Of a stretch of 64,000 nucleotides of DNA, positions 1 to 17,359 are shown piece by piece (position 1 is the stretch's first letter; each line of letters begins with the position of its first letter). Source of the DNA: an uncultured Planctomycetota bacterium (GTDB taxonomy: Bacteria; Planctomycetota; UBA1135; GCA-002686595); assembly GCA_903928115.1 (NCBI GenBank), contig CAIYPP010000074.1, forward strand, positions 1 through 64,000. The letters run 5' to 3'. The notes under the pieces are model-generated. The model was not told the DNA's origin, made no database searches, and saw only the letters and a program-made list of their open reading frames with translations. The position numbers and the translations under genes are program-made.

Positions 1-1330
<1,330 letters not shown>

Positions 1331-1334
<4 letters not shown>

Positions 1335-2032
1335 CGTGCAAGGCTCTTCGTGGCGAGGGCGAGGACGGAGTCGAACATCCGCGGTGTCAGGCGGCCGGTC
1401 TGCGTATTGAGGCGGCTCGGGTGGAAGCTCGCGAGGACTTCGAGTTCCCCGCAGCGATAGCGCGCACCGTGGGCGAAGCGCACGAGCGGCTTGGGTACGT
1501 CGTAGCCTGCGGCTCGCAGCGCGCGCGCCACGGCTCGCCAGCTGTCGGCGCCGAGGCACAGGACCTTCGCGGGCCGCCGCAGCAGCGCGAGCTCGCGTGC
1601 GAGGAAGGGTGCGCAGCGCTCGAACTCGCGCGGGCTGGGCTTGTTGCCCGGCGGCACGCAGCGCACGGCGTTCGAGATACGGGCGCCGCGGAGCGCGAGC
1701 CCGTCGTCGACGCTGCGCGACGTCGGCTGGCTCGCGATGCCGGCGCGCTGCAGCGCGGAAAAGAGGAAATCGCCGGAGCTGTCGCCCGTGAACGGACGGC
1801 CCGTACGGTTGGCGCCGTGCGCGCCCGGCGCGAGCCCGACGATCAGGAGCTCCGCGCGCGCATCGCCGAAGCTCGCGACGCCGCGCGAGTGGTACGGAGT
1901 GCCTCGCCACGCGCGCGGACCGGACTGCGAGCACGCGGAACGCCAGCGCACGAGGCGCGGACAGCGCTCGCACGCGAGCGTGTCCTGCGCGAGTGCTTCG
2001 AGCGAGTCTGTGGCGGCTGGGCGGCGCGGCAT
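1331..2032 (-). CDS. Uracil-DNA glycosylase, family 4 (UdgA-like)
   Basis: 233 aa, starting MPRRP at 2032. Motifs: CERCPRL (4Fe-4S cysteines) and GLAPGAHGANRTGRPFTGDSSGDFL, the family-4 UDG active-site block. The 4-nt stop/start overlap with the photolyase gene suggests translational coupling. Confidence 0.85.
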
Positions 2033-2063
2033 CGGGACGCTCCAGCCTACGGCGAGCCGCGCC

Positions 2064-3521: not shown

Positions 3522-3527
3522 GGAGGC

Positions 3528-3580
3528 CTTTCTAGGGCCGCTCGGGACGATTTCTAGAGATTTTGGGACGATTTCCCCTT
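3528..3580. promoter_or_regulatory. Candidate operator of the LitR/CarH-like regulator, in the divergent promoter gap
   Basis: GGGACGATTTC occurs twice exactly (3544-3554 and 3565-3575), 21 bp apart. A third degenerate copy (cTTTCtaGG) sits about 3528. The 95-bp gap separates the start of the epimerase operon (3521, minus) from the litR-like start (3617, plus). Confidence 0.45.
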
Positions 3581-3616
3581 GAGGGGTGGACGGTTCAGGG
3601 CGAAGGTGGACGAACC

Positions 3617-4429
3617 ATGGACGAATTCATGACCAGTGCCGAAGTCGCCCGGCTCCTCGGAGTCGGCCCGACGAGTGTCAAGCGGTGGGCCGACTCTGGC
3701 CTGCTGCCCTGTCTGCGGACCCCCGGCCGCCACCGCCGCTTCTCGCGGCCCGAGGTCGAGAAGTTCCGTCTGAAGCAGCATGAGGTTCAGGAGCCGGATC
3801 CGGCGCAGATCGATGCGTGGATCAAGCTCATCGACTCCGAGTGCGGTCCCTACGAAGTTCACAGCGCGCTCCTCTTCGACCGCTCGCGACTCGACGCCTG
3901 GTGGCGCGTGTCCGAGCTCGTCGGGGCGGTGCTCGCCGAGATCGGTCGCCGCTGGGAAGCCGGCCAGATGGGCATCCTGCAGGAGCACTTGGCCAGCGAG
4001 CGTCTCGCCCGCGGCCTCGCGCGCTGCACCGAGTCCATCGCCGTCCCCCAAAACGGCCCGCGCGCGCTGCTCGTCGGCGCCGAGGGGGACGAGCACACGC
4101 TCGGCCTCCAGCTGGCCGAGCTCGTGTTCCGCGAGCGCGGTTGGAACGTCCTTTGGGGCGGCCGCTCGATGCCGACGACCGAGGTGGTCGGCCGCATCCA
4201 GCACGGCGACTGCGACCTCGTCGCGGTCTCCGCGGCGGCGAGCTTCAAGGACCTCTCGAAGCTGCGCGACCAAGTGCGCGCGGTCGGCTCGGCGTGCCAA
4301 GAGCACGACGTGCAGCTGATCCTCGGCGGCCGTGCCCCGTGGCCGGAGCACGCCAGCGATCTGCCCCGCTTCCACCGCGTCAACAACTTCAGGGAGCTGC
4401 ACGAACTGCTAGGCTCCCTGCATGGCTGA
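3617..4429 (+). CDS. litR: MerR-family, B12-binding light-responsive transcriptional regulator (LitR/CarH type)
   Basis: N-terminus MTSAEVARLLGVGPTSVKRWADSGLL is a MerR/excisionase-type HTH. The C-terminus carries the cobalamin-binding DxHxxG signature in LLVGAEGDEHTLGLQ, followed by a Rossmann-like GG segment. There is an SD-like GAAGGTGGA upstream of the ATG at 3617; the ORF-track start at 3563 is probably too far upstream. Confidence 0.8.
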   Translation: MDEFMTSAEVARLLGVGPTSVKRWADSGLLPCLRTPGRHRRFSRPEVEKFRLKQHEVQEPDPAQIDAWIKLIDSECGPYEVHSALLFDRSRLDAWWRVSELVGAVLAEIGRRWEAGQMGILQEHLASERLARGLARCTESIAVPQNGPRALLVGAEGDEHTLGLQLAELVFRERGWNVLWGGRSMPTTEVVGRIQHGDCDLVAVSAAASFKDLSKLRDQVRAVGSACQEHDVQLILGGRAPWPEHASDLPRFHRVNNFRELHELLGSLHG

Positions 4430-5396: not shown

Positions 5397-5478
5397 CGGC
5401 CGTTCTGGCCGACTCGACGATGCGCACCCCCCAAATGAACTGCCGCGCGGGCGGCCGACGGGCCGACGGGGGCCTCGC

Positions 5479-6285
5479 GTGAGCTTCGCGCAGGGGTTGG
5501 AGCTCGCCCTTCTGGGCTGGGCCGTGGCGGCGGGCGTGATGCTCGTGCTGTGGATGATCCAGCTCCGCACGCGCGACGCGACCGAGGTCGACATGGCTTG
5601 GGCGGCGAATCTCGGGGTGCTCGCGGTGCTCTACGCATGGCGGGCGGACGGGCTGCCCGAGCGGCGCTGGCTGGTGGGCGGGCTCGTGGCGCTCGCCTCG
5701 TGGCGGCTCGCGCTCTACCTGTACCTCGACCGTGGACGCAAGGGCGTCGAAGATGGTCGCTACGCCACACTGCGCGCGTCGTGGGGGAGCGCGGCGAACG
5801 CGAAGTTCTTCGTGTTCTATCAGGCGCAGGCGCTGCTCGACGTTCTGCTGGCGCTGCCGTTTCTGCTCGCGTGCGGAGCGAGCGCGCCGCTCTCGTGGCT
5901 CGACGGGCTCGGCGTCGCGCTCGCGGTGGTCGCGGCGCTCGGCGAGTCGCTCGCCGATCGCCAGCTCGCGCGCTTTCGCGCCGAGCCCGCGAACCGCGGC
6001 CGCACGTGCCGCTCGGGGCTGTGGCGCTACTCGCGTCACCCCAACTACTTCTTCCAGTGGCTCCTGTGGTGCGGCTACGCGTGCTTTGCGTGGAACGCGC
6101 CTTGGGGTTGGCTCGGCGTCGTGAGTCCGCTCGCGATGCTCGGACTGATTCTGTTCGTCACGGGCATTCCGCCCACCGAGGCCCAAGCGCTGCGTTCGCG
6201 CGGCGACGACTACCGCGCGTACCAGCGCACCACGAGCTCGTTCGTCCCGTGGTTTCCCAAGGACGACGCGGCTCCCGCGAGGTGA
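5479..6285 (+). CDS. DUF1295 membrane protein (steroid 5-alpha-reductase / ICMT-like fold)
   Basis: 268 aa, hydrophobic with several TM segments. [20 protein letters not shown] is the conserved DUF1295 motif. Confidence 0.8.
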
Positions 6286-6289
6286 ACAT

Positions 6290-7321
6290 ATGGCACTGCA
6301 GACCCTGATCGAGTCGGGCAAGGTCCCGGATTTCGCGCTGCGCATGGGCATTCGGCGTCTCTTGGCGCAGCGCCTGCGCGAGGAGGAGGCGGGCGGCGAA
6401 GAGGGGCGCAGGACGCGCCGCGAGGCGCTGCTCGCGAACATGCGCTCGAGTCCGATCGCGCTGCACACGGCCGAAGCCAACGACCAGCACTACGAGGTGC
6501 CGACGCGCTTCTACGAGCTCGCGCTCGGGCCGCACCTCAAGTACTCGGGCGCGCTGTGGAACGCCGGCACGCGCACGCTCGGCGAGGCGGAAGAGGCGAT
6601 GCTCGCGCTCTATTGCGAGCGCGCGGGCCTCGTCGACGGCATGGACGTCTTGGAGCTCGGCTGCGGCTGGGGGTCGCTGAGCCTCTACATGGCCGCGCGC
6701 TTTCCGAAGAGCCGGATCCTCGGCGTGTCGAACTCGCGCACCCAGCGCGAGCACATCCTCGCCAAGGCGAAGGAGCGCGGGATCACCAACCTCGAGATCG
6801 AGACCTGCGACATCAACCGCTGGAGCACCGCGCGGCGCTTCGATCGCGTGATGTCGGTCGAGATGTTCGAGCACCTGCGCAACTGGGAGCAGCTGTTTGC
6901 GTTGATCGCGGGCGCGCTGAAGCCCGAAGGGAAGCTCTTCTTCCACATTTTTACCCACGTCCGTCACGCCTACCTGTTCCAGACCGAGGGCGATGACAAC
7001 TGGATGGGGCGCAACTTCTTTACAGGCGGCATCATGCCGTCGGACGACTTGCCGCTCGCGTTCCAGCGCGACTTGGAGTGCGTCGAGCGCTGGCAGGTCG
7101 ACGGCACGCACTACGGCAAGACGGCCGAGGCGTGGCTCGCGAACATGGATCGCAACAAGAACGAGGTGCGCGAGCTCTTCCGCGCGACCTACGGCGCGGG
7201 CCGCGAGCGCGCTTGGATCGAGAATTGGCGCGTGTTCTTCATGGCGTGCGCGGAGCTCTGGAACTACCGTAACGGCTCGGAGTGGATCGTCTCCCACTAC
7301 CTGTTCCGTCGTCGCCCTTAG
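6290..7321 (+). CDS. SAM-dependent methyltransferase of the cyclopropane-fatty-acyl-phospholipid synthase family (short paralog)
   Basis: 343 aa. [16 protein letters not shown] is SAM-binding motif I. The [24 protein letters not shown] block and the C-terminal [12 protein letters not shown] are typical of the CFA-synthase / mycolic-acid methyltransferase family. Confidence 0.8.
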
Positions 7322-7334
7322 AGGTCTTGTCCGG

Positions 7335-8297
7335 ATGGAGTCGTCGCCGCAGGCCGCCGCTGGCCCTAAGAAGACCACGTCGCTGGCCTTCCTGCGCTGG
7401 ATCGACTCGTGGGCAGGCATCGACGAGCCGGTCGCGAGCACCGAGAAGCGCGTCGACTGGCCGCGCATCCTGCCCTTCGCGCTGCTGCACGTGGCCTGCC
7501 TCGGCGTGATCTGGGTGGGCTGGAGTCCGGTGGCCGTGGGCGTCGCCGTCGCGCTCTACGTGGTCCGCATGTTTGCGATCACGGCCTTCTACCACCGCTA
7601 CTTCTCGCACCGCACGTTCAAGACCTCGCGCGCGATGCAGTTCCTGTTCGGCGTGCTCGGCAACAGCGCGGTGCAGCGCGGGCCCCTGTGGTGGGCCGCG
7701 CACCACCGCGAGCACCACCTGAACTCCGACACGGACGACGACACGCACTCGCCGGTGCGCCACGGGTTCTTTTGGAGCCACGTCGGCTGGATCACGGCCA
7801 AGCACAACTTCCCGACGCGGCGCGAGCGCGTGAAGGACCTGCTCAAGTACCCGGAGCTGTGCTTCCTCGACCGCTTCGACATCGTGGTGCCGATCGCGAT
7901 GTTCGCGGGGCTGTACGGGCTCGGCGCGTGGCTCGGGTCGGCCTACCCCGAGCTCGGCACGAGCGGCTGGCAGCTCGTCGTGTGGGGGATGATCTCGACC
8001 GTCGTGCTGTTCCACGCGACGTTCACGATCAACTCGCTCGCGCACGTGTGGGGCACGCGGCGCTTCCAGACGCGCGACGCGAGCCGCAACAACTGGTTCC
8101 TCGCGATCGTCACGCTCGGCGAGGGCTGGCACAACAACCACCACCACTATCAGGGCTCGGTGCGGCAGGGCTTCGTGTGGTGGGAGTACGACCCGAGCTA
8201 CTACGCGCTGCGCGCGATGAGCTGGCTCGGCCTCGTGTGGCAGCTGAATCCGGTGCCTGCCGTGGTGCTCGAGAAGCGGCTCGAGAAGCGCGGCTAG
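7335..8297 (+). CDS. Membrane fatty-acid desaturase (acyl-CoA / acyl-lipid Delta9-desaturase family)
   Basis: Three histidine boxes are present: HRYFSHR, HREHHLNSD and HNNHHHY. The start was moved to ATG 7335 (MESSPQ), because the ORF-track start at 6993 overlaps the upstream gene and translates to low-complexity junk. Confidence 0.8.
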   Translation: MESSPQAAAGPKKTTSLAFLRWIDSWAGIDEPVASTEKRVDWPRILPFALLHVACLGVIWVGWSPVAVGVAVALYVVRMFAITAFYHRYFSHRTFKTSRAMQFLFGVLGNSAVQRGPLWWAAHHREHHLNSDTDDDTHSPVRHGFFWSHVGWITAKHNFPTRRERVKDLLKYPELCFLDRFDIVVPIAMFAGLYGLGAWLGSAYPELGTSGWQLVVWGMISTVVLFHATFTINSLAHVWGTRRFQTRDASRNNWFLAIVTLGEGWHNNHHHYQGSVRQGFVWWEYDPSYYALRAMSWLGLVWQLNPVPAVVLEKRLEKRG

Positions 8298-8309
8298 GGA
8301 GCGAGCGGC

Positions 8310-9596
8310 TTGCGCGTCGCCATCGTCGGCAGCGGGATCTCGGGCCTCGTCGTAGCGCACCACCTCGCGCGCGAGCACCAGATCGAGCTCTACGAGGCGG
8401 GCAGCTACGTCGGCGGCCACACGCACACGCACACGCTCGAGCTCGGCGGCCGCACCCTCTCGATCGACACGGGCTTCATCGTCTTCAACCGCAAGACGTA
8501 CCCCAACTTCTGTCACCTGCTCGAAGAGCTCGGCGTCGCCTCCAAGGAGAGCGACATGAGCTTCAGCGTGCGCGAGGAGCGCACGGGCATCGAGTGGAAC
8601 GGGCGCAACCTCGACACGGTGTACGCGCAGCGCTCGAACCTCTTGAGGCCGAGCTTCCACCGCATGGTGCTTGACATCCTGCGCTTCAACCGTGAAGCGC
8701 AGGAGCTGCTCTCCGGCGACGACGAGATCCCGCTGGGCGACTACCTGCGAGAGCGGCGCTACTCCGAGAGCTTCCGCCGGCTCTACATCCTGCCGATGGG
8801 GGCCGCGATCTGGTCGGCGAGCCCCGACGAGATGCTCGCCTTCCCCGCGCGCTTCTTCGTGCGCTTCTTCCACAACCATGGGTTCCTGCAGGTCGAGGGG
8901 CGGCCGGTGTGGCGTGTGGTCGAGGGCGGGTCGGCGCGCTACGTCGAGGCCCTGATCCGGCCTTTCCGCGAGCGCGTCCACGTCTCGACGCCCGTGCGAT
9001 CGGTGCGGCGTATGGCGGACGGGGTCGAAGTCGAGCTGGCGCGCGGCGAGCGGCAGCGCTTCGACCACGTGGTGCTTGCGACCCACAGCGACACGGCGCT
9101 GGCCCTGCTCGCCGATCCGAGCCCCGTCGAGCGCTCGGTCTTGGGCGCGATCCGCTATCAGGAAAACGAGGCCGTGCTCCACACGGACGCCTCCCTGCTC
9201 CCCAAGCGGCGCAAGGTCTGGGCCAGCTGGAACTACCACCTGCTCGACCCCGGCGGGCAGGGGGCGGAAGGGGTGAATCCACACCGGGCGACGCTGACGT
9301 ACTGGATGAATAGGCTGCAGGGCCTCGACTGCCCCGAGGAGCTCTGCGTGACCCTGAACCACTCCCAGGCCGTCCAGCCCTCTCGGGTCCTGCGTCGAAT
9401 GACCTACCACCACCCGCACTTCGACCTCCCGACCGTCGCCGCCCAGCGGCGCTGGTCCGAGGTCAGCGGCGTGAACAGGACCTCCTTCGCCGGTGCGTAC
9501 TGGCGCTACGGATTCCATGAGGACGGCGTGATGAGCGGCCTGCGGGTCGTCGAGGCCCTCTCGGGCCGCCGTGTCCTCGTGGAGCCGTGGTCGTGA
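8310..9596 (+). CDS. FAD/NAD-binding amine-oxidase-like oxidoreductase (UfaD-like position)
   Basis: MRVAIVGSGISGLVVAHHL is a dinucleotide-binding GxGxxG motif. 428 aa. The architecture matches the flavin amine oxidases found next to DUF1365 and cfa genes. Confidence 0.8.
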   Translation: MRVAIVGSGISGLVVAHHLAREHQIELYEAGSYVGGHTHTHTLELGGRTLSIDTGFIVFNRKTYPNFCHLLEELGVASKESDMSFSVREERTGIEWNGRNLDTVYAQRSNLLRPSFHRMVLDILRFNREAQELLSGDDEIPLGDYLRERRYSESFRRLYILPMGAAIWSASPDEMLAFPARFFVRFFHNHGFLQVEGRPVWRVVEGGSARYVEALIRPFRERVHVSTPVRSVRRMADGVEVELARGERQRFDHVVLATHSDTALALLADPSPVERSVLGAIRYQENEAVLHTDASLLPKRRKVWASWNYHLLDPGGQGAEGVNPHRATLTYWMNRLQGLDCPEELCVTLNHSQAVQPSRVLRRMTYHHPHFDLPTVAAQRRWSEVSGVNRTSFAGAYWRYGFHEDGVMSGLRVVEALSGRRVLVEPWS

Positions 9597-10354
9597 GGAG
9601 CGCGGTCTACTTCGGGCGTGTGGGGCACCGTCGGATCGGCGGGGTCGAGCACGCGTTCGGCTACGGGCACGTCTTGCTCGCACTCGACCTCTCCGAGCTC
9701 GACCGCGCGTTCCGCGGTCGCTGGCTGTGGTCGGTCGAGCGCGCGAACCTCGTGAGCTTCCGGCGCGCGGACTACCTCGGGGCCGAAGGCGGGGCGGCGC
9801 TCGACGCGGCCGTGCGAGCGCGCGTGCAGGCGGAGCTCGGGCGCGAGCCGAAGGGGCGCGTGGTGCTGCTCACGCAGCCGCGCTTCGCGGGCTTCGTCTT
9901 CAACCCCGTCAGCTTCTACTACTGCTACGACGCGGACGAGCGCCTCGACGCAATCGTGGCCGAGATCACGAACACGCCGTGGGGCGAGCGGCACAGCTAC
10001 GTGCTCGACGCACGCGGCGGCGCCGGTGCGCGCGCGCGCTTCGCCAAGCGCTTCCACGTCTCGCCGTTCCAAGACATGGGGCAAGAGTACGAGTGGGCCT
10101 TCGGCGAGCTCGGCGAAGAGCTCGACGTGCAGATGACGAACTTCGAGCGCGGCACGCCCGTGTTCGAGGCCCGGCTTCAGATGCGGCGACGCGAGCTCGA
10201 CGGCGCGGCGCTCGCCCGCGCGCTGTGCCTCTGCCCCGGCTTCTCGCTGCGCTCGATCGCGGCGATCTACTGGCAAGCGCTGCGACTCAAGCTCAAAGGC
10301 GCGCCCTTCTTCGAACATCCCCGCACTCGCCGATCCCCCCTCGCGGAGACGTAG
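9587..10354 (+). CDS. DUF1365 family protein (UfaO-like position)
   Basis: 255 aa. Contains GHRRIGGVEHAFGYGHVLLALDLSELD and FVFNPVSFYYCYD, which are conserved DUF1365 blocks. The GTG start overlaps the upstream stop. Confidence 0.75.
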   Translation: MVVRSAVYFGRVGHRRIGGVEHAFGYGHVLLALDLSELDRAFRGRWLWSVERANLVSFRRADYLGAEGGAALDAAVRARVQAELGREPKGRVVLLTQPRFAGFVFNPVSFYYCYDADERLDAIVAEITNTPWGERHSYVLDARGGAGARARFAKRFHVSPFQDMGQEYEWAFGELGEELDVQMTNFERGTPVFEARLQMRRRELDGAALARALCLCPGFSLRSIAAIYWQALRLKLKGAPFFEHPRTRRSPLAET

Positions 10355-10360
10355 GAACCC

Positions 10361-11653
10361 ATGAGCACTCCCGCCTTCACCCAGGAAGTCCGCTACGCGC
10401 CCGAGCCGGTGCGCGTCTCGCGCTCGCGTCCCTTCAGCGCGCTCGAGCGCTTCGCGCGCACTCAGCTCTGCCAGCGTCTCGCGGGGATCCGCTGGGGGCG
10501 CCTCGTGCTGCGCGACGCCCTCGGTTCGCAGGTGTTCGGCGGCGCGGAGGGGCCGAGCGCGACCATCGAGGTGCACGACGGCGAGCTGTACCTCGACATC
10601 GCCAAGCAGGGCAGCGTCGGTGCGGGCGAGGCCTACGCGCACGGCGCGTGGTCGACCGACGACCTCACCCACGTGATCCGCATTCTCGTGCGCAATCGCG
10701 ACGTGCTGCAGGGAATGGAGAAGGGCTTCGCGCGACTCGGCAGCTCGGCGCTACGAATTTGGCACTCGCGCCGCGACAACACGCGCGCGGGATCGCGCGA
10801 GAACATCGCGGCGCACTACGACCTCGGCAACGAGTTCTACGAGCTGTGGCTCGACGAGACGATGATGTACTCGTGCGCGGCGTTCGAGCGCGCGGACATG
10901 ACGCTCCACGAAGCGCAGGTCGCGCGCTTGGACCGCATCTGCCGCAAGCTCGATCTCAAGCCGACGGACCACTTGCTCGAGATCGGCACGGGTTGGGGCG
11001 GGATGGCGCTCCATGCGGCGCGGGAGTTCGGCTGCCGCGTGACGACGACGACGATCTCGCGTCGTCAGCACGAAAAGGCGGTCGAGCGCGTGCGCGCGGC
11101 GGGGCTCGAAGACCGCGTGACGGTGCTCTTCGAGGACTACCGCGATCTCCAAGGTCGCTTCGACAAGCTCGTGTCGCTCGAGATGATCGAGGCGGTCGGC
11201 GAGCGCTGGTACGACACGTACTTCACCAAGTGCTCGGATCTGCTCGCGCCGAACGGGCTCATGCTCCTGCAGGCGATCACGATCCGTGACTCGCTCTACG
11301 AGGAGGCTCTGCGCTCGGTCGACTTCATCCAGCGCTTCATCTTCCCCGGCAGCTGCATTCCGTCGACGGCGGCGATCATGGACCGTGTGGCGCGCGTCAC
11401 CGACATGAACCTGTTCCATCTCGAAGACATCGGGCCGCACTATGCGCCGACGCTGCGGATGTGGCGCGAGAACATGGCGCGCAATGCGGAGCAGATTCGC
11501 GCGCTCGGCTACAGCGAAGAGTTCCTGCGCATGTGGGAGTTCTACCTCTGCTACTGCGAGGGCGGCTTCGAGGAGCGCTCGATCCAAGACGTGCAGATGC
11601 TGCTGGCCAAGCCGGAAAATCGGCGCAATCCTCTGCTTCCGAACCTGCGCTGA
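10361..11653 (+). CDS. cfa: Cyclopropane-fatty-acyl-phospholipid synthase family methyltransferase (full-length paralog)
   Basis: 430 aa. NIAAHYDLGNEFYELWLDETMMYSCAAF matches the canonical Cfa block, LLEIGTGWGGMALHAA is the SAM motif, and EFYLCYCEGGFEERSIQDVQMLLAKP is the C-terminal Cfa block. There is an AGGAA SD upstream. Confidence 0.85.
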   Translation: MSTPAFTQEVRYAPEPVRVSRSRPFSALERFARTQLCQRLAGIRWGRLVLRDALGSQVFGGAEGPSATIEVHDGELYLDIAKQGSVGAGEAYAHGAWSTDDLTHVIRILVRNRDVLQGMEKGFARLGSSALRIWHSRRDNTRAGSRENIAAHYDLGNEFYELWLDETMMYSCAAFERADMTLHEAQVARLDRICRKLDLKPTDHLLEIGTGWGGMALHAAREFGCRVTTTTISRRQHEKAVERVRAAGLEDRVTVLFEDYRDLQGRFDKLVSLEMIEAVGERWYDTYFTKCSDLLAPNGLMLLQAITIRDSLYEEALRSVDFIQRFIFPGSCIPSTAAIMDRVARVTDMNLFHLEDIGPHYAPTLRMWRENMARNAEQIRALGYSEEFLRMWEFYLCYCEGGFEERSIQDVQMLLAKPENRRNPLLPNLR

Positions 11654-11664
11654 GGCGAGCTCGC

Positions 11665-12207
11665 GTGAGCAAGCTCACGAACTTCATCGCATTCCAAGTC
11701 TGCTGGTTCGCGTGCGTGCTCGGCGCGGCGAAGGACATGGAGTGGATCGGGCCGCTCTCGGTGGCGCTCTTTCTCGCGTGGTCGCTGACGCTCGTCGCGA
11801 GCGCGAAGCGCGAGCTCACAGCGCTCGCGGCGGCCGCTGTGCTCGGCACGTTCGTCGACACCGTGCAGCTCCAGATGGGCTGGCTCGAGTATCAGGGCGC
11901 TCCGCTCCTCGGGGTGCTCGCGCCGAGTTGGATCGTCGCGCTGTGGGTTGTGTTTGCGATGACCTTCGACAGCTCGCTCGCCTGGCTGACACGGAGGCGC
12001 GCGTGGTTTTCGGCCTTCGGCGCGATCGGTGCGCCGTTTTCGTACTGGGGCGGTGTGAGATTGGGCGCGGTCGAGTTCGGGGACCCGCTCTGGCCCTCGA
12101 TCGCAGGCATTTCCGTGTGCTGGGGCAGCGCCCTGCCGCTCGCGGCGTGGCTGGTCGAGCGGCTTCGGAGAGCTCCGAGCGGGAAAATCGAGGCGCAGCC
12201 TCACTAG
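11665..12207 (+). CDS. DUF2878 family small membrane protein
   Basis: GTG start at 11665, 180 aa, four predicted TM helices. It is the last gene of the lipid cassette, the same position DUF2878 takes in comparable clusters. Confidence 0.6.
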   Translation: MSKLTNFIAFQVCWFACVLGAAKDMEWIGPLSVALFLAWSLTLVASAKRELTALAAAAVLGTFVDTVQLQMGWLEYQGAPLLGVLAPSWIVALWVVFAMTFDSSLAWLTRRRAWFSAFGAIGAPFSYWGGVRLGAVEFGDPLWPSIAGISVCWGSALPLAAWLVERLRRAPSGKIEAQPH

Positions 12208-12217
12208 AATCCGGCGC

Positions 12218-13291
12218 ATGCCGCGCCGACGCCGCCAGCACGGGTTGCCCACCAATCCGGGGATGAGCCCTGGATCGCTCGTGATCCCCGAGGGCGCGCC
12301 GAAGCCGCGTGTGCGCGTCATGCGCTACGACGCGGGCAACATCGAAGCGCGCGACCATGTCTCGCGCGCGGAGCTGCTGCGGCTCGCAGAGGCCCCCGAG
12401 GTGACGTGGATCGACGTCGAAGGCTACGGGGACCACGAGCTGTTCGAGTTTCTCGGACACAAGCTCGGCGTGCCCCGCCTTGCGCTCGAGGACGTGCTCG
12501 GCAACAGCTCGCGTCCCAAGGTCGAGGTCTTCGGCGATTCGCTCTTCATCGTCGCCCGTGCGATGAAGCAGGGCGAACACCCCGAGTCGGAGCAGATCTC
12601 GATCTTCGTGCGCGGAACGACCGTGATCACGTTCACGGACGAGCCGCTCGATTTGCTCGCGCCCCTGCGCACACGGTTGCACGATCCGGAGAGCGCGACG
12701 CGACGCAGCGGCGTCGACTTCTTGGCCTATCGCATCCTCGACTGCGTGGTTGATACGTATACGCCGTGCTTGGAGCACCTCGGCACGCGGCTCGATGCCG
12801 TCGAAGCCGAGGCGATCGCGAAGCCGTCGTCGAAGCCACTCACGACCCTGTACCTCTTGATGCGAGACCTGCGGCAGCTCGCGCGCATCGCGCTGCCGAT
12901 GCGCGAGCTCGCGGTCGCACTCGGGCACGAGGCGCGGGGCTTCTTCCGGGCCGAGACGCTCCCCTTCCTCGCGGATCTGCGCGAGCACACACAGTCGGTG
13001 GTGGAGCTCACGGGTCACTATCGCGATCTCGGCACCGACGTGCGCGAGCTCATCCACGGCGCGCTGAACCTGCGCATGAACCAGGTCATGCGCTTCATGA
13101 CCGCGGTGACAGCCGTGTTCATTCCGCTCTCGTTCGTGACGGGGCTCTATGGAATGAACTTCGAGAACATTCCCGAGACACGGTGGCCGTACGGGTACTT
13201 CCTCACGCTCGGGCTGCTCGCGAGCATCGCGCTGTTCACGCTGCGCTGGCTGCGCGCGCAAGGCTGGACGAGGGTCAACGAGGACGAGTAG
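12218..13291 (+). CDS. corA: Magnesium/cobalt transporter CorA
   Basis: C-terminal GLYGMNFENIPE (the GMN motif) plus two TM helices. 357 aa; an alternative start exists at 12263. Confidence 0.85.
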   Translation: MPRRRRQHGLPTNPGMSPGSLVIPEGAPKPRVRVMRYDAGNIEARDHVSRAELLRLAEAPEVTWIDVEGYGDHELFEFLGHKLGVPRLALEDVLGNSSRPKVEVFGDSLFIVARAMKQGEHPESEQISIFVRGTTVITFTDEPLDLLAPLRTRLHDPESATRRSGVDFLAYRILDCVVDTYTPCLEHLGTRLDAVEAEAIAKPSSKPLTTLYLLMRDLRQLARIALPMRELAVALGHEARGFFRAETLPFLADLREHTQSVVELTGHYRDLGTDVRELIHGALNLRMNQVMRFMTAVTAVFIPLSFVTGLYGMNFENIPETRWPYGYFLTLGLLASIALFTLRWLRAQGWTRVNEDE

Positions 13292-13324
13292 TCGCCGGTG
13301 CGGCGGACTCGGACGGGGATCAGC

Positions 13325-16300
13325 ATGAATGGCGCGAGCGAAGGGACGCCTGTGCGCGGGGCGCGGAGGCGCTGGCTGCTGCGCGTGCTCGGCGCGGGGC
13401 TCGTGCTGTTCGCCGCGCTCGTGCTCCTGCGGAATCGCGTGCTGGCTCCTTGGATCGTCGAGGAGCTCGCGCGCCGCGTCGAAGCCGAGCACGGAGTCCG
13501 GCTGAGCGTTCAGCGCGTTTCGGGGGACTGGATTTCCTCTCTCGAACTCGAGGATGTCCAGCTCGCGGGCGTCGAGGTGCCGTGGAGGATCGAGCTCGAA
13601 GATGTGCGACTCGAGTACGACCTGCGCGGCGTCTTGAGCGGCGAGCTCGAAGCGCTCGAGGAAGTTCGAGTGACGTACGCGCGAGTGGAAGCGGATCTCG
13701 GCGTGGCTGCGGCGGAAGACGGGGCCTCGGTCCGCGCGCCGCAGGCCGACTTCGAGATCGTGCGACGGTGGCCTTCGATCACGGTCGAGCGAGTTGAGAT
13801 CGAGTTGGGACTCGACGCGGAACGCCGCGTGAGCGCTCGCGGAGGAGCCGTGGAACTGCGAGACGCGAGGCTCGCTCTCACCGTTCCGAGGCTCGAGCTC
13901 GCTGGAGCTTGGCCGGAGGGGCTGCGGCAGTTCTCGCTCGACGCCGTCGTCACGGCGGAGGACTCCGGGATTCGCATCGAGAGACTCGAGCTCGGCGGCG
14001 ACCTGGCGGTGCGGACGCAGTCGGGCGTCGTTCGATGGTCCGACGCGCGCATGGAAGCGCAGTGGAGCGGCTGGGCCGCGGAGCTTCGCGCGTCCTTCTC
14101 TCTCGCCAGCGCGCGGGGCGATCACGAGCTGCGCTGGGAGGTGGCGGACGTCGATCTCGAGCGCCTTTCGCGCCAAATTCCCGCACTGCAGGAACTCGGT
14201 CTCGAAGGACGGCTCGATGCCGTTGGCCACACCGTCTTCGATCGAGAGGGCGTGTGGAGTGAGGGGGAGCTCCGCGCCGAGAGCCTGTGCGTCGGCGAGC
14301 GAATGCTCGACGGACTCGACGCGCAGCTCGTGCTCCTACCGGACAGCGTCGAGCTACCCCGGCTCAGCGCGCGACAGAACGTCAACTTCCTCTGGGCACA
14401 GGGCATCTCGGCGCCGTTGGGAGCGGATAGCCTCCTCGAGCTGGTCGCTGCGTCGCGCGGAGAGCTCGAGCTCATCGTCCATGACGTTCGCGAGCTCTGG
14501 GGAGAAGCCGATGGCGAGCTCCCTCCACACAGAGCGTCGCTGTCGGGAACGCTCAGCGAGGGCGGCCTGCGCATCGAGCGCGGGCGACTCGACACGCAGC
14601 GCGGGCGCATGGTGTTGCGCCGTGGCCGCGTCGAGTGGCGCGATCCACTCGAACAGAGCGAGCTTTCGGTCGAGGGCGACTTGAGCTTCCCGAACCTCGC
14701 CGAGCTCGGCTCCTTGATCGACACGCGCGAGTGGTCGGGCCGCATGGTCGGCACGTTGGACGTCTCTGGTGCTCTCCGTGCGCCCGAAGGGCGTTTGGAG
14801 CTCCGCGGTCAGGACGTCGTTGCCTCCGGCTTCGAGTTGGGGAGCGTCGACGTTCGCGCGCGAGTCGAAGGTACGCGGGTCGAGCTTGCCGCGCTGCGAA
14901 CGTCGGGACCTCTCGGCGCGTTGCTCGCAAACGGCGTGTTGGACTGGCGCGCCCGCGAGGTTTTGCGCAGCGAGCTGTCGCTGGAGACTCAACGCGCGGA
15001 AACTCTGTTGCCGCGATGGCTCACGCGGGGTGCCGTCGCCATCGACGCGCGCCTTTCGGGTCCTTTCGACGCACTCGCAGGACCGATCGAGCTTCGTGCT
15101 CACGACGTCGGAACGCTCGACGGAATGGAGCTCGACCGCTTGGAGCTGCGCTGCGATGCCAGCGCGGACCGGTTCCGCGTGGAGAACTTGCGGGCCGTCG
15201 CGCGGGGCGTTTCGGCGTGGGCGAGCGGGAGTGTCGTGCACGAGCGCCTCGCGGCGCCGTGGCTCGTCGAGCTCGAAACTGCGCTGCTCGAGCGCGAGGG
15301 CGTGGCGCTGGTGCTCGAGCGTCCCGCCGCTGCCGAGGTCGGTGCGGACTTCTTGAGTGCGCCCTCGCTGGTGTTCGCAGGGCTCAAGGGGGAAGTCGAG
15401 CTTGCGCTCGCGCGAGCTGCGGAGCGTCTTGAAGTGGACCTGCGCTTCGATGACGTCGAGCCCATGCCGCTCTTGGCGGCCGTGGCGCCGCGCGGCATCT
15501 CCGTGGGAGACGTCGACGGCAGACTTTCGTTGCGTCGCGGCATCGATGGCTACGAGTTCGTCGGCGATCTTCGCGCGCAGCGGCTGGAGCTTGGCCCCGG
15601 CTGGCCGGAGATGGCGCTCGAGCTCACCGCGCGCGCGTCCGGCGAGCGCGCCGTTGTCGAGCGCCTGCGACTCGAGTCCAACGACGGAATCGCGCTGAAG
15701 GCCGAGGGGGACGTGCCGTTCGACGCGCAGGAGCCGTGGCGAGCGGGCGAGGGGCCGTTGCAGCTCGCCGCGGAGCTGCGCGTCGGCGATGCGCGGGCCC
15801 TGCCCTGGGAGACGCTCGGCCTGCCCGGACCGATGGGCGGCGAGTTCGTCGCGCGCTCGCGCATCGCCGGCAAAGTGCCGGACCTGCGCGGCTTCGTGGA
15901 ATGCGAGGGACGCGGACTCTCACTCGCCCCGCTCGCGGATGGCGGAGTCGTCACCACGCTCGGCATCGGCGAGGGCGAGCTTTCGCTGCGGCTCCTCCTC
16001 GATGGCGCGATGAGCGTGGAGCGCGCCACGCTGAAGGCCAAGCCGGGCATTGCGCTCGACCTCTCGGGCCGCTTGCTCTCGCGAGAAGCGCTCGTTCAGT
16101 GGTGGGAGAGTGAGCGGGTGCCTTGGAGCCAGGCCGATGCGGATCTGCGCGCCCATTGGTCGGTGGAGGACCTCGGCGTGCTCGCGGCGCTCGCGCCGGA
16201 GCTGCGGCGCACGGGAGGCGCGACGCAAGGCTCGCTGGAGCTCCGCGGCGGACTCGATGCGCCGCGTGTGAACGGGGACGCGACGCTTTCGCGCGGCGAG

Positions 16301-17359
16301 CTGCGCTTGGAGAGCGGATTTCCGCCGCTGCAGGCCATCGAGGGCTCGTTCGTGCTGGAGGATAGTCAGCTGCGGGTCGAGCGCCTGCGGGGCGAGCTCG
16401 GCGCGGGGCCTTTCGAGATCTCGGGCCGTGTCCGTGTCGCGCGAAATCCCGTCTTTGAGCTAGAGCTCGTCGGTCGGGAATTGCTCGTCGTGCAGCAGCG
16501 CGAGCTGCGCGTTCGCGCCGATGCGGAGCTCTCGCTCACCGGGCCGCTCGACGCGCTCGTGCTGCGCGGCGAGCTAGCGCCGCGGGACAGCCGCTGGTCG
16601 CGCAACTTCGATTGGTTCCGACCGCGCTCGCGCTCCGGCCCTGGTCGGGACGCGTCGGTCCCGCTCTTCAGCGTCGCGCACGGACCACTCTCGAGCTTGC
16701 GCTTCGACCTACGCCTGCGCAACGGCGAGCCGTTCCGAGTCGACAGCAACGTTGCGCGCGGATCGCTGCGGCCCAACCTCGCGCTGACTGGCACGGGTCG
16801 CGCGCCAGTTCTCACGGGCGCGCTGTTCCTCGATCCGACCTCGATTCCGCTGCCCGCCGCGACTCTCGAACTGCGCTCGGGCACGCTCGCACTGGATCGG
16901 CGCGACCCGCTCGATCCGACACTCGACTTTTCGATGTCGACGCGTGTGCGAGGGTACGACGTGCAGGTGCGCGTGGCCGGCCGCTATTCCGAGCCGGAGC
17001 TCGAGCTCTCGTCGAGGCCGCCGCTTTCGAGCGAGGACATCCTCTTGCTGCTGCTGACCGGTCGCGCTCCGGGGGCCGCGCTCGCGGGGGATGACGCGGT
17101 CGACGCAGCGGAGACCGTGATCGTCTATCTCGGCAAGGACCTGCTCTCGCGGCTCTTCGAAGGCGAAGGCTCGATGATGGAGCGCGTCGAGGTGCAGACC
17201 GGCGCGGACGTCACACAGAACGGCGGCTCGACGGCGCAGGTGCGGATACGCGTCCACGGCAAGGCCGAGGGCGAGGGGCGCGCGATCTACCTGCGCGGCG
17301 AGCGGGACATCTACGAGCGCATCAACTTTGGCGTCCGTTTCGTGATGAGGCTGCGCTGA
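13325..17359 (+). CDS. tamB: Translocation/assembly module TamB-like protein (DUF490 C-terminus)
   Basis: About 1340 aa. It has an N-terminal signal-anchor (WLLRVLGAGLVLFAALVLL), a long beta-rich repeat body, and a C-terminus typical of DUF490. An alternative GTG start lies at 13298. Confidence 0.75.
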   Translation: MNGASEGTPVRGARRRWLLRVLGAGLVLFAALVLLRNRVLAPWIVEELARRVEAEHGVRLSVQRVSGDWISSLELEDVQLAGVEVPWRIELEDVRLEYDLRGVLSGELEALEEVRVTYARVEADLGVAAAEDGASVRAPQADFEIVRRWPSITVERVEIELGLDAERRVSARGGAVELRDARLALTVPRLELAGAWPEGLRQFSLDAVVTAEDSGIRIERLELGGDLAVRTQSGVVRWSDARMEAQWSGWAAELRASFSLASARGDHELRWEVADVDLERLSRQIPALQELGLEGRLDAVGHTVFDREGVWSEGELRAESLCVGERMLDGLDAQLVLLPDSVELPRLSARQNVNFLWAQGISAPLGADSLLELVAASRGELELIVHDVRELWGEADGELPPHRASLSGTLSEGGLRIERGRLDTQRGRMVLRRGRVEWRDPLEQSELSVEGDLSFPNLAELGSLIDTREWSGRMVGTLDVSGALRAPEGRLELRGQDVVASGFELGSVDVRARVEGTRVELAALRTSGPLGALLANGVLDWRAREVLRSELSLETQRAETLLPRWLTRGAVAIDARLSGPFDALAGPIELRAHDVGTLDGMELDRLELRCDASADRFRVENLRAVARGVSAWASGSVVHERLAAPWLVELETALLEREGVALVLERPAAAEVGADFLSAPSLVFAGLKGEVELALARAAERLEVDLRFDDVEPMPLLAAVAPRGISVGDVDGRLSLRRGIDGYEFVGDLRAQRLELGPGWPEMALELTARASGERAVVERLRLESNDGIALKAEGDVPFDAQEPWRAGEGPLQLAAELRVGDARALPWETLGLPGPMGGEFVARSRIAGKVPDLRGFVECEGRGLSLAPLADGGVVTTLGIGEGELSLRLLLDGAMSVERATLKAKPGIALDLSGRLLSREALVQWWESERVPWSQADADLRAHWSVEDLGVLAALAPELRRTGGATQGSLELRGGLDAPRVNGDATLSRGELRLESGFPPLQAIEGSFVLEDSQLRVERLRGELGAGPFEISGRVRVARNPVFELELVGRELLVVQQRELRVRADAELSLTGPLDALVLRGELAPRDSRWSRNFDWFRPRSRSGPGRDASVPLFSVAHGPLSSLRFDLRLRNGEPFRVDSNVARGSLRPNLALTGTGRAPVLTGALFLDPTSIPLPAATLELRSGTLALDRRDPLDPTLDFSMSTRVRGYDVQVRVAGRYSEPELELSSRPPLSSEDILLLLLTGRAPGAALAGDDAVDAAETVIVYLGKDLLSRLFEGEGSMMERVEVQTGADVTQNGGSTAQVRIRVHGKAEGEGRAIYLRGERDIYERINFGVRFVMRLR

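Follow-up and report, generated by a model that had tools for sequence, protein, structure and literature searches.

What is made, and under which control, by a compact row of predicted lipid-modifying genes headed by a putative photoreceptor gene is the question raised by contig CAIYPP010000074.1 (GenBank assembly GCA_903928115.1) of an uncultured Planctomycetota bacterium, of which positions 1 to 64,000 (hereafter the window, 64,000 nucleotides [nt] in length) were analyzed. A preliminary description of this DNA had pointed to a UfaM/UfaD/UfaO-like set as a candidate pathway for furan or methyl-branched fatty acids, and this assignment agrees with the literature and with the synteny presented below. 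Furan fatty acids, which reach animals from microbes and plants, are potent scavengers of singlet oxygen and radicals. Only in a few bacteria has their biosynthesis been elucidated, fully in two Alphaproteobacteria and for the first step in one Halomonas. We propose that the row is a light-derepressed operon, which probably converts acyl chains of membrane lipids to their mono- and dimethyl furan forms and also encodes de-thiolation of transfer RNA (tRNA).

Because the window has a guanine-plus-cytosine (GC) content of ~70%, mechanical lists of open reading frames (ORFs) are crowded with spurious frames; the gene row was therefore picked by third-position GC and by Pfam and NCBIfam scans, and start codons were refined against orthologs and public gene calls. 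The full unit consists of nine genes on the + strand between positions 3617 and 12207 (Table 1), all with a third-position GC of 0.85-0.93, whose neighbours overlap or lie 4-13 nt apart, the sole exception being an 82-nt gap (5397-5478) before the DUF1295 gene. This is larger than the stretch from 6290 to 11653 that had been described as the cassette: five of the genes do lie inside those limits, the DUF1295 and DUF2878 genes are real but lie just outside, and the CarH-like vitamin B12 (B12) photoreceptor and the RudS-type protein that head the operon had been overlooked. Every domain named in that description is present in an intact ORF with a strong Pfam score, and the lengths given for the two methyltransferases (343 and 430 amino acids [aa]) were correct. 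Proteins identical to those of the window were found on other metagenome contigs, for which public gene calls give 320 (desaturase), 428 (flavoprotein), 253 (DUF1365), 430 (long methyltransferase) and 180 aa (DUF2878), in agreement with the window, where the DUF1365 protein has 255 aa.

The pathway described by Lemke et al. 2020 (PMC7380195) starts with cis-vaccenate, from which UfaM (RSP2144) forms 11-methyl-12-trans-18:1 by methylation; UfaD (RSP1091), a phytoene desaturase-like protein binding NAD and flavin adenine dinucleotide (FAD), generates the 10t,12t diene, and UfaO (RSP1090), a 250-aa DUF1365 protein, inserts an oxygen derived from O2 to give the monomethyl furan fatty acid, which FufM (RPA0924) of Rhodopseudomonas palustris methylates to the dimethyl form. 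The genes RPA2571-2570-2569 of R. palustris are a contiguous ufaD-ufaO-ufaM group, the UfaD and UfaO homologs act on phospholipid acyl chains in vitro, and the furan-forming reaction ran without an external reductant (PMC7380195), which agrees with the balance diene + O2 -> furan + H2O that we derive by our own reasoning. Consecutive ufaD-ufaO-ufaM genes are also carried by Halomonas sp. YLGW01, whose ufaM (YLGW01_00254) makes 11-methyl-octadec-12-enoate in Escherichia coli (PMC12089945). The flavoprotein, the DUF1365 protein and the 430-aa methyltransferase of the window match UfaD, UfaO and UfaM by family, size and gene order. The flavoprotein has PF01593, PF13450 and DAO matches and an N-terminal GxGxxG motif, and it begins with MRVAIVG, as does R. 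palustris UfaD (RPA2571) as read from a cloning primer; the length of RSP1091, calculated from a published deletion table, is 433 aa. The DUF1365 protein matches PF07103 over residues 7-246 of 255 (263 bits), and the long methyltransferase matches PF02353 with 303 bits and aligns, its N-terminal domain of the phospholipid Cfa-like type included, to residues 36-373 of Cfa of E. coli MG1655 with 35% identity.

This long methyltransferase stays below the NCBIfam cut-offs for Cfa (287 of 400 bits for PRK11705, 287 of 600 for the Brucella type and 254 of 650 for CfaB). When aligned to E. coli Cfa, the 430-aa protein and its cassette-linked homologs (73 of 73) have Gln at the position of His266 and Ala at that of His240, most of the cassette-linked long methyltransferases have Ser or Ala for Cys139, and Glu239, Ile268 and Tyr317 are kept. 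Non-plant cyclopropane synthases are described as strictly conserving the five bicarbonate-site residues, C139, E239, H266, I268 and Y317 (PMC3132707); because residues of this set are changed here, the 430-aa protein is not an E. coli-type Cfa.

The shorter methyltransferase had been recorded as a paralog of the cyclopropane fatty acid (CFA) synthase family with unassigned function. The family (CMAS) was correctly named, and the protein can be placed after all, on a branch that resembles coclaurine N-methyltransferase (CNMT) and, by sequence, is not that of Cfa. Among solved structures, those of the plant N-methyltransferases for coclaurine, pavine and tetrahydroprotoberberine are closest to it (176-226 bits, full-length); the CNMT structure PDB 6gkv is matched end to end with 226 bits, E. 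coli Cfa with 94 bits, and the NCBIfam Cfa score is 142 bits against a cut-off of 400. The motif EMFEH is invariant in 55 homologs and aligns with ELFEH of the CNMT structure, which we take to contain the CNMT catalytic residues E204, E207 and H208. Matches in the plasmid collection are bimodal, with this branch at 44% identity or above and ordinary cfa genes at 33% or below, and none of them comes from Nitrobacteraceae. The two paralogs of the window are 24% identical.

How this branch relates to FufM can be judged from several indirect points. Reported identities of FufM are 26% with UfaM and 38% with Arabidopsis AT4G33110 (LIME1), the latter presumably annotated as coclaurine-N-methyltransferase-like. 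The ends of FufM (RPA0924), as encoded by primers in the supplement, are MSGLASL... and ...RLKPA followed by the stop codon, and RPA0923 abuts it with an ATGA overlap. On Rhizobiaceae plasmids the DUF1295 gene overlaps the start of the short methyltransferase gene by ATGA and the methyltransferase ends in ...SHYRLRPAG; the RLKPA end of FufM fits the SHYRL[RK]PA ending of the Rhizobiaceae family members, the comparison covering only the primer-encoded ends of FufM. A DUF1295 gene adjoins a short methyltransferase gene of this type in Ralstonia, Acinetobacter and Rhizobiaceae. There is, hence, good circumstantial evidence that FufM belongs to the CNMT-like branch with DUF1295 as its regular partner, and the 343-aa protein is, by this indirect route, a candidate FufM-type furan-ring C-methylase. 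The same families are linked across kingdoms, because the singlet-oxygen (SAK1) regulon of Chlamydomonas induces CFA1, a CNMT-annotated 'CFA2', a DUF1365 gene and a DUF1295 gene together; DUF2177, which is encoded in the Rhizobiaceae loci, also belongs to this regulon (PMC4067076).

The desaturase had been described as a membrane enzyme with three His boxes, and indeed its HRYFSH, HREHH, NSLAH and HNNHH motifs align with mouse SCD1 (PDB 4ymk), so that all SCD1 di-iron ligands (HxxxxH, HxxHH, NxxxH and HxxHH) are present. It reaches 85 bits with the NCBIfam DesA model (cut-off 400), and it is 57% identical to the 'acyl-CoA desaturase' of the Acinetobacter plasmid cassette and 53-62% identical to its cassette-linked counterparts in other phyla. 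Because it is as conserved as the core enzymes, a dedicated role can be argued, and we infer that the obvious one would be to supply the cis-olefin substrate. The suggestion that the desaturase compensates for host lipids dominated by iso-branched chains did not hold: nothing supports such lipids in this host, which belongs to a freshwater Planctomycetota lineage, and since the desaturase co-travels with the cassette even in Beta- and Gammaproteobacteria, it is a component of the cassette rather than a host-specific fix.

Two further membrane proteins accompany these enzymes. The DUF1295 protein has a Pfam Steroid_dh match of 30 bits, above the cut-off, and weak matches to the SRD5A and ICMT structures in the PDB; with expect values (E) of 0.05-0.17, an assignment to either the reductase or the methyltransferase side failed, and a broad literature search on DUF1295 gave nothing useful. 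AlphaFold models from alignments of database homologs were confident; with modest fold scores, the predicted beta-barrel of DUF1365 would fit an enzyme that takes a hydrophobic ligand, and the Insig-like fold of DUF2878 a helper that binds lipids in the membrane. DUF1295 and DUF2878, the latter with a predicted Insig-like lipid-binding fold, are conserved accessory membrane proteins without an assigned step.

In order to place the cassette among its relatives, a genome collection with one genome per species was scanned, which gave 332 loci with a relative of the flavoprotein; the window proteins were mapped onto the best 80 of these, to which the following counts refer and none of which comes from Cereibacter or Rhodopseudomonas. 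The five closest loci are metagenome-assembled genomes (MAGs) of freshwater Planctomycetota with 73-97% identity, lakes Mendota, Erken and Tanganyika being among the sites. The desaturase gene lies directly upstream of the flavoprotein gene in 54 of the 72 loci with enough flank, and the DUF1365 and long methyltransferase genes follow the flavoprotein gene in 67 of the 72; the flavoprotein-DUF1365 adjacency, which in the window extends to an overlap (9587-9596), is thus found in at least 67 of them. The commonest order (31 times) is short methyltransferase, DUF2878, DUF1295, desaturase, flavoprotein, DUF1365 and long methyltransferase, and all seven of these families are present in 32 of 55 loci. 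They travel together in Beta- and Gammaproteobacteria, in other Planctomycetota, in one Rhodothermales MAG and in one Acidobacteriota MAG, a grouping that is far beyond chance. The order regulator-RudS-DUF1295-methyltransferase is kept in loci L001, L004 and L005, and a Halomonadaceae locus (L080) arranges its ufaD-ufaO-ufaM-type trio as the window does, the three proteins being 55, 40 and 46% identical to their counterparts here.

The flavoprotein of the window is up to 61% identical to those of Beta- and Gammaproteobacteria and 54-58% identical to those of other Planctomycetota (L056, L064 and L066-L068), and the cassette is plasmid-borne in Acinetobacter, Burkholderia, Ralstonia and Rhizobiaceae; these cross-phylum identities and plasmid locations suggest that the whole gene set has spread horizontally. 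Duplicated cassette genes were also observed (two desaturases in L030, two short methyltransferases in L037 and in L047), and lipocalin-family genes, absent from the window, lie beside the cassette in ~49 of the 80 loci. On the plasmids of Rhizobium sp. CIAT894 and Shinella sp. H4-D48 (L084 and L085), genes for a divergent FAD oxidoreductase, rpoE, chrR, DUF1295, the short methyltransferase, a hypothetical protein, DUF2177, DUF2147 and DUF1365 were found; the long Cfa-like gene is missing from both, a 51-aa fragment being all that is seen in L084.

As to the control of the operon, the regulator that heads it matches the cobalamin-binding structure 8jbs, CarH of Thermus thermophilus (5c8d) and BldC (6ama) in the PDB, and carries the motifs Wx9EH (WEAGQMGILQEH) and DxHxxG (DEHTLG), which hold adenosylcobalamin in CarH. 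It scores 56 bits with the NCBIfam CarH equivalog (cut-off 400), and the HTH_BldC match is also below its cut-off; by these matches it is a member of the CarH/LitR family and not an equivalog of Myxococcus CarH. Direct repeats at 3544-3628 reach the start codon of the regulator and consist of GGGACGATTTC twice, followed by further copies of the GGACG(R)WT type (GGACGGTTC, GGACGAACC and GGACGAATTC), with spacings of 21, 22, 20 and 11 bp. The 11-mer GGGACGATTTC has no further copy in the window; this count was rejected as stand-alone support, because 27 of 100 shuffles also reach two matches and it is not significant, and the case for an operator rests, therefore, on position, spacing and conservation, the core GACGAWT being conserved in the orthologous regions of L004 and L005. 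As CarH and BldC bind tandem direct repeats, these conserved repeats are a candidate operator. In 11 other loci, which belong to several phyla, the cassette likewise has a CarH-like gene with intact motifs beside it.

The second gene of the operon encodes PF04463 (residues 15-156) and PF08349 (DUF1722; residues 199-315) in one protein of 324 aa. RudS, a TudS-DUF1722 fusion, strips 4-thiouridine from tRNA and shortens the growth delay induced by ultraviolet A light, and RudS genes have been noted in LitR-controlled light operons (PMC11417400). LitR regulators of Pseudomonas control phrB, a short-chain dehydrogenase/reductase (SDR) gene, an FAD oxidoreductase gene and ufaM (PMC9758184). In Aeromonas, transcript levels dropped upon addition of riboflavin both for a ChrR-family anti-sigma-E factor and for a predicted operon of SDR, FAD oxidoreductase, DUF1365, cfa and DUF2878 genes, and photolyases or cryptochromes adjoin the cassette in Ralstonia and Acinetobacter. 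The gene combination is already widespread and partly described, in light- or sigmaE-regulated clusters of Pseudomonas, Aeromonas and Vibrio. Since a CarH-like photoreceptor and RudS head the operon, we regard the locus as a putative light-response unit. A light or photo-oxidative context seems typical of these genes; what would differ here is the direct coupling to a B12 photoreceptor, together with the absence of a photolyase among the genes of the 64-kb window.

From these results the following scheme can be proposed. In the dark, the regulator loaded with adenosylcobalamin would bind the repeats at 3544-3628 and repress the operon, and probably also the divergent pair of SDR and uracil-DNA glycosylase (UDG) genes, as its motifs and family suggest; light would break the Co-C bond and the regulator would be released. 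RudS would then remove 4-thiouridine, a near-UV chromophore, from tRNA, an activity known for the family. The SCD-type desaturase would put a cis double bond into a saturated acyl chain, the 430-aa UfaM-type enzyme would add a methyl group from S-adenosylmethionine (SAM) and shift the double bond to give a methyl-branched trans-olefin, and the UfaD-like flavoprotein, with O2, would create a conjugated diene by placing another trans double bond in the chain. The UfaO-like DUF1365 protein, a predicted beta-barrel, would add one oxygen atom of O2 across the diene to close the furan ring without an external reductant, and the 343-aa FufM-type methyltransferase would methylate the ring to the dimethyl form; the resulting methylated furan fatty acids would scavenge singlet oxygen and radicals. 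The methylation, diene, furan and ring-methylation steps have been shown experimentally only for the homologs of Cereibacter sphaeroides, R. palustris and Halomonas, and they are transferred here by family, size and gene order. A possible extension, which we put forward tentatively, is that the seven-gene set is a self-sufficient, horizontally moving module for the whole route from saturated acyl chains of phospholipids to dimethyl furan fatty acids, that the published scheme of three or four enzymes lacks two components, DUF1295 and DUF2878, and that the B12 photoreceptor switches the whole module directly; in that case, DUF1295 and DUF2878 might, for instance, serve the ring steps by handling of electrons or methyl groups, or might bind the modified lipid and present it in the membrane.

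Several points weigh against this scheme. The orthology of the trio to UfaD-UfaO-UfaM is drawn from family and size, from gene order and from short primer-encoded termini, and not from a tree. Scans with consensus promoters and terminators gave nothing above chance, also in the region 3522-3616, and the operator is visible as a conserved repeat only. The H266Q/H240A/C139S signature was considered as proof against cyclopropanation and was dropped, since H266Q and C139S also occur in the cotton cyclopropane synthases, which are flavin oxidase-CFA fusions that truly form cyclopropanes (PMC3132707); it marks a 'UfaM / plant-CPS-type' subfamily (CPS, cyclopropane synthase) whose product is not predictable from the active site. 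C. sphaeroides, moreover, can form furan fatty acids without the CFA-like gene at this operon position (RSP1089), and its UfaM is encoded elsewhere (PMC7380195). The 430-aa protein has the position of UfaM in R. palustris and Halomonas, but RSP1089 occupies that position too, and because RSP1089 is dispensable, operon position alone is no proof of UfaM function. Because H266Q and C139S are shared with cyclopropane-forming plant enzymes, the idea stays alive that the locus encodes a split bacterial version of the plant-type synthase, in which the long methyltransferase cyclopropanates the cis-olefin of the desaturase and the flavoprotein and the DUF1365 protein process the ring, for example to a cyclopropene, and no furan is made. 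Arabidopsis AT3G23510 is about equally similar to UfaM and UfaD, and the mass spectrum of sterculate methyl ester is that of the diene intermediate, so the two are easily confused. The operon-linked enzymes that were found to be active (RPA2569 and Halomonas YLGW01_00254) give, however, a methyl-branched olefin and not a cyclopropane, the UfaD and UfaO homologs of two bacteria make the diene and the furan, and a FufM-type methyltransferase in the operon would have no obvious role on a cyclopropane; we therefore consider this explanation unlikely.

That the substrate is a lipid other than a fatty acyl chain (an isoprenoid, a quinone, a carotenoid-like polyene or an amine-bearing lipid) is very improbable in our view. 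Weak NCBIfam matches do link the flavoprotein to HpnE, protoporphyrinogen oxidase and carotene desaturases, and in the PDB it is closest to the polyketide amine oxidase LkcE (155 bits); the short methyltransferase shares its E-x-x-E-H catalytic motif with the alkaloid N-methyltransferases that are its nearest solved relatives, DUF1295 resembles steroid reductases and ICMT, and the Insig-like fold of DUF2878 is known for sterol binding. Against this, the SCD-type acyl desaturase and the Cfa-like phospholipid methyltransferase belong to the set as integral, conserved parts, phospholipid acyl chains are the in vitro substrates of the homologous flavoprotein and DUF1365 proteins, and no gene for isoprenoid or alkaloid biosynthesis lies within the window. 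The control of the lipid genes, finally, can be questioned under any chemistry: the CarH-like gene could control itself and RudS, or the SDR-UDG pair, and the lipid genes could have their own promoter after the 5397-5478 gap, either constitutive or responding to another stress signal, such as one acting through an extracytoplasmic function (ECF) sigma factor. No other gap in the row is of notable size, in Alphaproteobacteria and Aeromonas it is sigmaE/ChrR and not LitR that controls the homologous genes, and most of the 80 related loci have no adjoining CarH-like gene. Yet neither a terminator- nor a promoter-like site stands above chance in or near the gap, the order from the regulator to the methyltransferase is kept in L001, L004 and L005, the 11 adjoining CarH-like genes with intact motifs occur in other phyla, and LitR-type control of ufaM clusters is documented in Pseudomonas (PMC9758184), so that we hold separate control to be distinctly unlikely. 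Light-derepressed synthesis of furan fatty acids is, hence, the reading that we prefer.

The flanks of the operon are summarized in Table 1. The SDR gene that diverges from the operon probably shares its regulatory region, and the extra C-terminal domain of the protein gave only a faint SRPBCC/Polyketide_cyc match (E 0.14). TIGR01777 genes also lie near the cassette in the Ralstonia light island, in the Acidobacteriota MAG L077 and in Modicisalibacter (Halomonadaceae, L080), and because they accompany the cassette elsewhere, this SDR may belong to the same response. The UDG gene lies downstream of the SDR gene on the minus strand, a position conserved in L004, so that a DNA-repair gene may share the light-regulated promoter. 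A long frame with high third-position GC that runs off the start of the window (3-1328, minus strand) has no Pfam match. On the other side, genes for CorA, a 1353-aa TamB-like protein and Omp85/TamA follow the operon on the same strand with almost no spacing (12218-19398); since they adjoin the cassette only in L002-L005, which are close relatives within Planctomycetota, CorA and the TamB-like protein appear to be neighbours and not parts of it. The remainder of the window has a housekeeping character (queA, queG, an ECF sigma factor, 2-oxoglutarate dehydrogenase, peptidases and FG-GAP proteins), and an Rfam scan of the whole window found no RNA family and no cobalamin riboswitch.

Table 1. 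Predicted features of the operon and its divergent neighbours in the 64,000-nt window.
Feature	Position	Strand	Basis
UDG-superfamily DNA glycosylase, approximate start	1331..2050	-	PF03167 E 5e-31
TIGR01777 (YfcH-type) SDR with extra C-terminal domain of ~180 aa	2064..3521	-	TIGR01777 337 bits; Pfam Epimerase, DUF1731
Divergent intergenic region with tandem direct repeats, candidate operator/promoter	3522..3616 (95 bp)		repeats, position, conservation
CarH/LitR-type regulator, 270 aa	3617..4429	+	Pfam HTH_17, MerR_1, B12-binding, B12-binding_2; start fixed by ortholog alignment
RudS-type tRNA 4-thiouridine desulfidase, 324 aa	4422..5396	+	PF04463 E 5e-41, PF08349 E 2e-40; start overlaps regulator stop codon by 8 nt
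DUF1295 membrane protein, steroid-5-alpha-reductase/ICMT superfamily	5479..6285	+	PF06966 E 1e-66
Short CMAS-family methyltransferase, 343 aa	6290..7321	+	PF02353 E 3e-40
SCD-type (Delta9-type) di-iron membrane fatty acid desaturase, 320 aa	7335..8297	+	PF00487 E 1.5e-19; internal ATG of ORF 6993-8297
UfaD-like FAD flavoprotein, 428 aa	8310..9596	+	PF01593 (Amino_oxidase) E 1e-29, PF13450 (NAD_binding_8)
UfaO-like DUF1365 protein, 255 aa (253 aa in public calls)	9587..10354	+	PF07103 E 3e-78; overlaps flavoprotein gene by 10 nt
Long CMAS-family methyltransferase, 430 aa, UfaM position	10361..11653	+	PF02353 E 2e-90
DUF2878 membrane protein, 180 aa, six helices, Insig-like fold	11665..12207	+	E 1e-40

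The locus and its relatives extend the predicted furan fatty acid pathway to Planctomycetota, which will come as no surprise to specialists, because homologs have already been said to span the bacterial phylogeny (PMC7380195); its value is that of a well-defined test construct and not of a new principle. A compact, transferable cassette with its own desaturase and a FufM-type methylase offers candidates (DUF1295 and DUF2878) for open steps, such as support of the UfaO reaction, and it is a clean case in which a CarH-type B12 photoreceptor apparently governs membrane-lipid chemistry and tRNA de-modification, and not carotenoid synthesis. If the reading as a self-sufficient module were true, abundant non-phototrophic freshwater bacteria would supply, in a light-driven manner, the dimethyl furan fatty acids that become enriched towards the top of aquatic food webs.

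One of the closest precedents is the pathway of C. sphaeroides and R. palustris (Lemke et al. 2014, 2020), which has the same four protein families, namely a Cfa-like SAM-dependent methylase, a ~430-aa FAD desaturase, a ~250-aa DUF1365 protein and a further, distant methylase of the CMAS family, with the order ufaD-ufaO-ufaM in R. palustris and a tie to photo-oxidative stress in both systems. The window adds an SCD-type desaturase, DUF1295 and DUF2878 in one operon, and its FufM-type gene lies inside the cassette, whereas it is a separate locus in the R. palustris pathway. Compared by family and order, control would be exerted here by a B12 photoreceptor in a non-phototrophic planctomycete, and is exerted there by sigmaE/ChrR. 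The mobile cassettes of other bacteria are similar in content. Acinetobacter plasmid pYUSHP14-1 carries a run of photolyase, lipocalin, acyl-CoA desaturase, FAD oxidoreductase, DUF1365, CFA-family, DUF1295 and class I methyltransferase genes, in which the desaturase, FAD oxidoreductase, DUF1365, CFA, DUF1295 and short methyltransferase proteins have 32-57% identity to those of the window, and the light island of the Ralstonia wenshanensis megaplasmid p56D2 shares a MerR regulator, FAD oxidoreductase, DUF1365, CFA, DUF1295, short methyltransferase, DUF2878 and a TIGR01777 SDR, with GTP cyclohydrolase I after the MerR gene, lipocalins and three photolyase/cryptochrome genes as extras. Both differ from the window in gene order, in their lipocalins, chalcone-isomerase-like genes and photolyases, and in the lack of RudS.

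With regard to control, the LitR clusters of Pseudomonas putida and P. mendocina (phrB, SDR, FAD oxidoreductase, ufaM and RudS) resemble the window in that a MerR/LitR-family regulator heads light-induced RudS and flavoprotein/ufaM genes. By the account of the authors, the class II LitR of Pseudomonas works with a light-oxygen-voltage (LOV) photoreceptor, and the text of the P. mendocina paper makes no mention of a desaturase or a methyltransferase (PMC9758184), whereas the regulator of the window keeps the full CarH-type B12 motifs next to a BldC-like DNA-binding domain. The plant cyclopropane synthases (Sterculia SfCPS and cotton GhCPS1-3) and AT3G23510 also join a flavin oxidase to a Cfa-type methyltransferase and share H266Q and C139S with the family of the 430-aa protein; they are, however, single fused polypeptides that form cyclopropanes on oleoyl-phosphatidylcholine, whereas the genes of the window are separate, with a DUF1365 gene between them. 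Finally, CarH of T. thermophilus and Myxococcus xanthus has the same architecture as the regulator: a MerR-type helix-turn-helix at the N-terminus, a bundle of four helices that holds Wx9EH, and a Rossmann B12 domain carrying [D/E]xHxxG. The candidate operator of the window consists of tandem direct repeats; the DNA-binding domain of the regulator is closer to BldC and excisionase, and its gene adjoins lipid-modification and tRNA genes rather than carotenoid genes.

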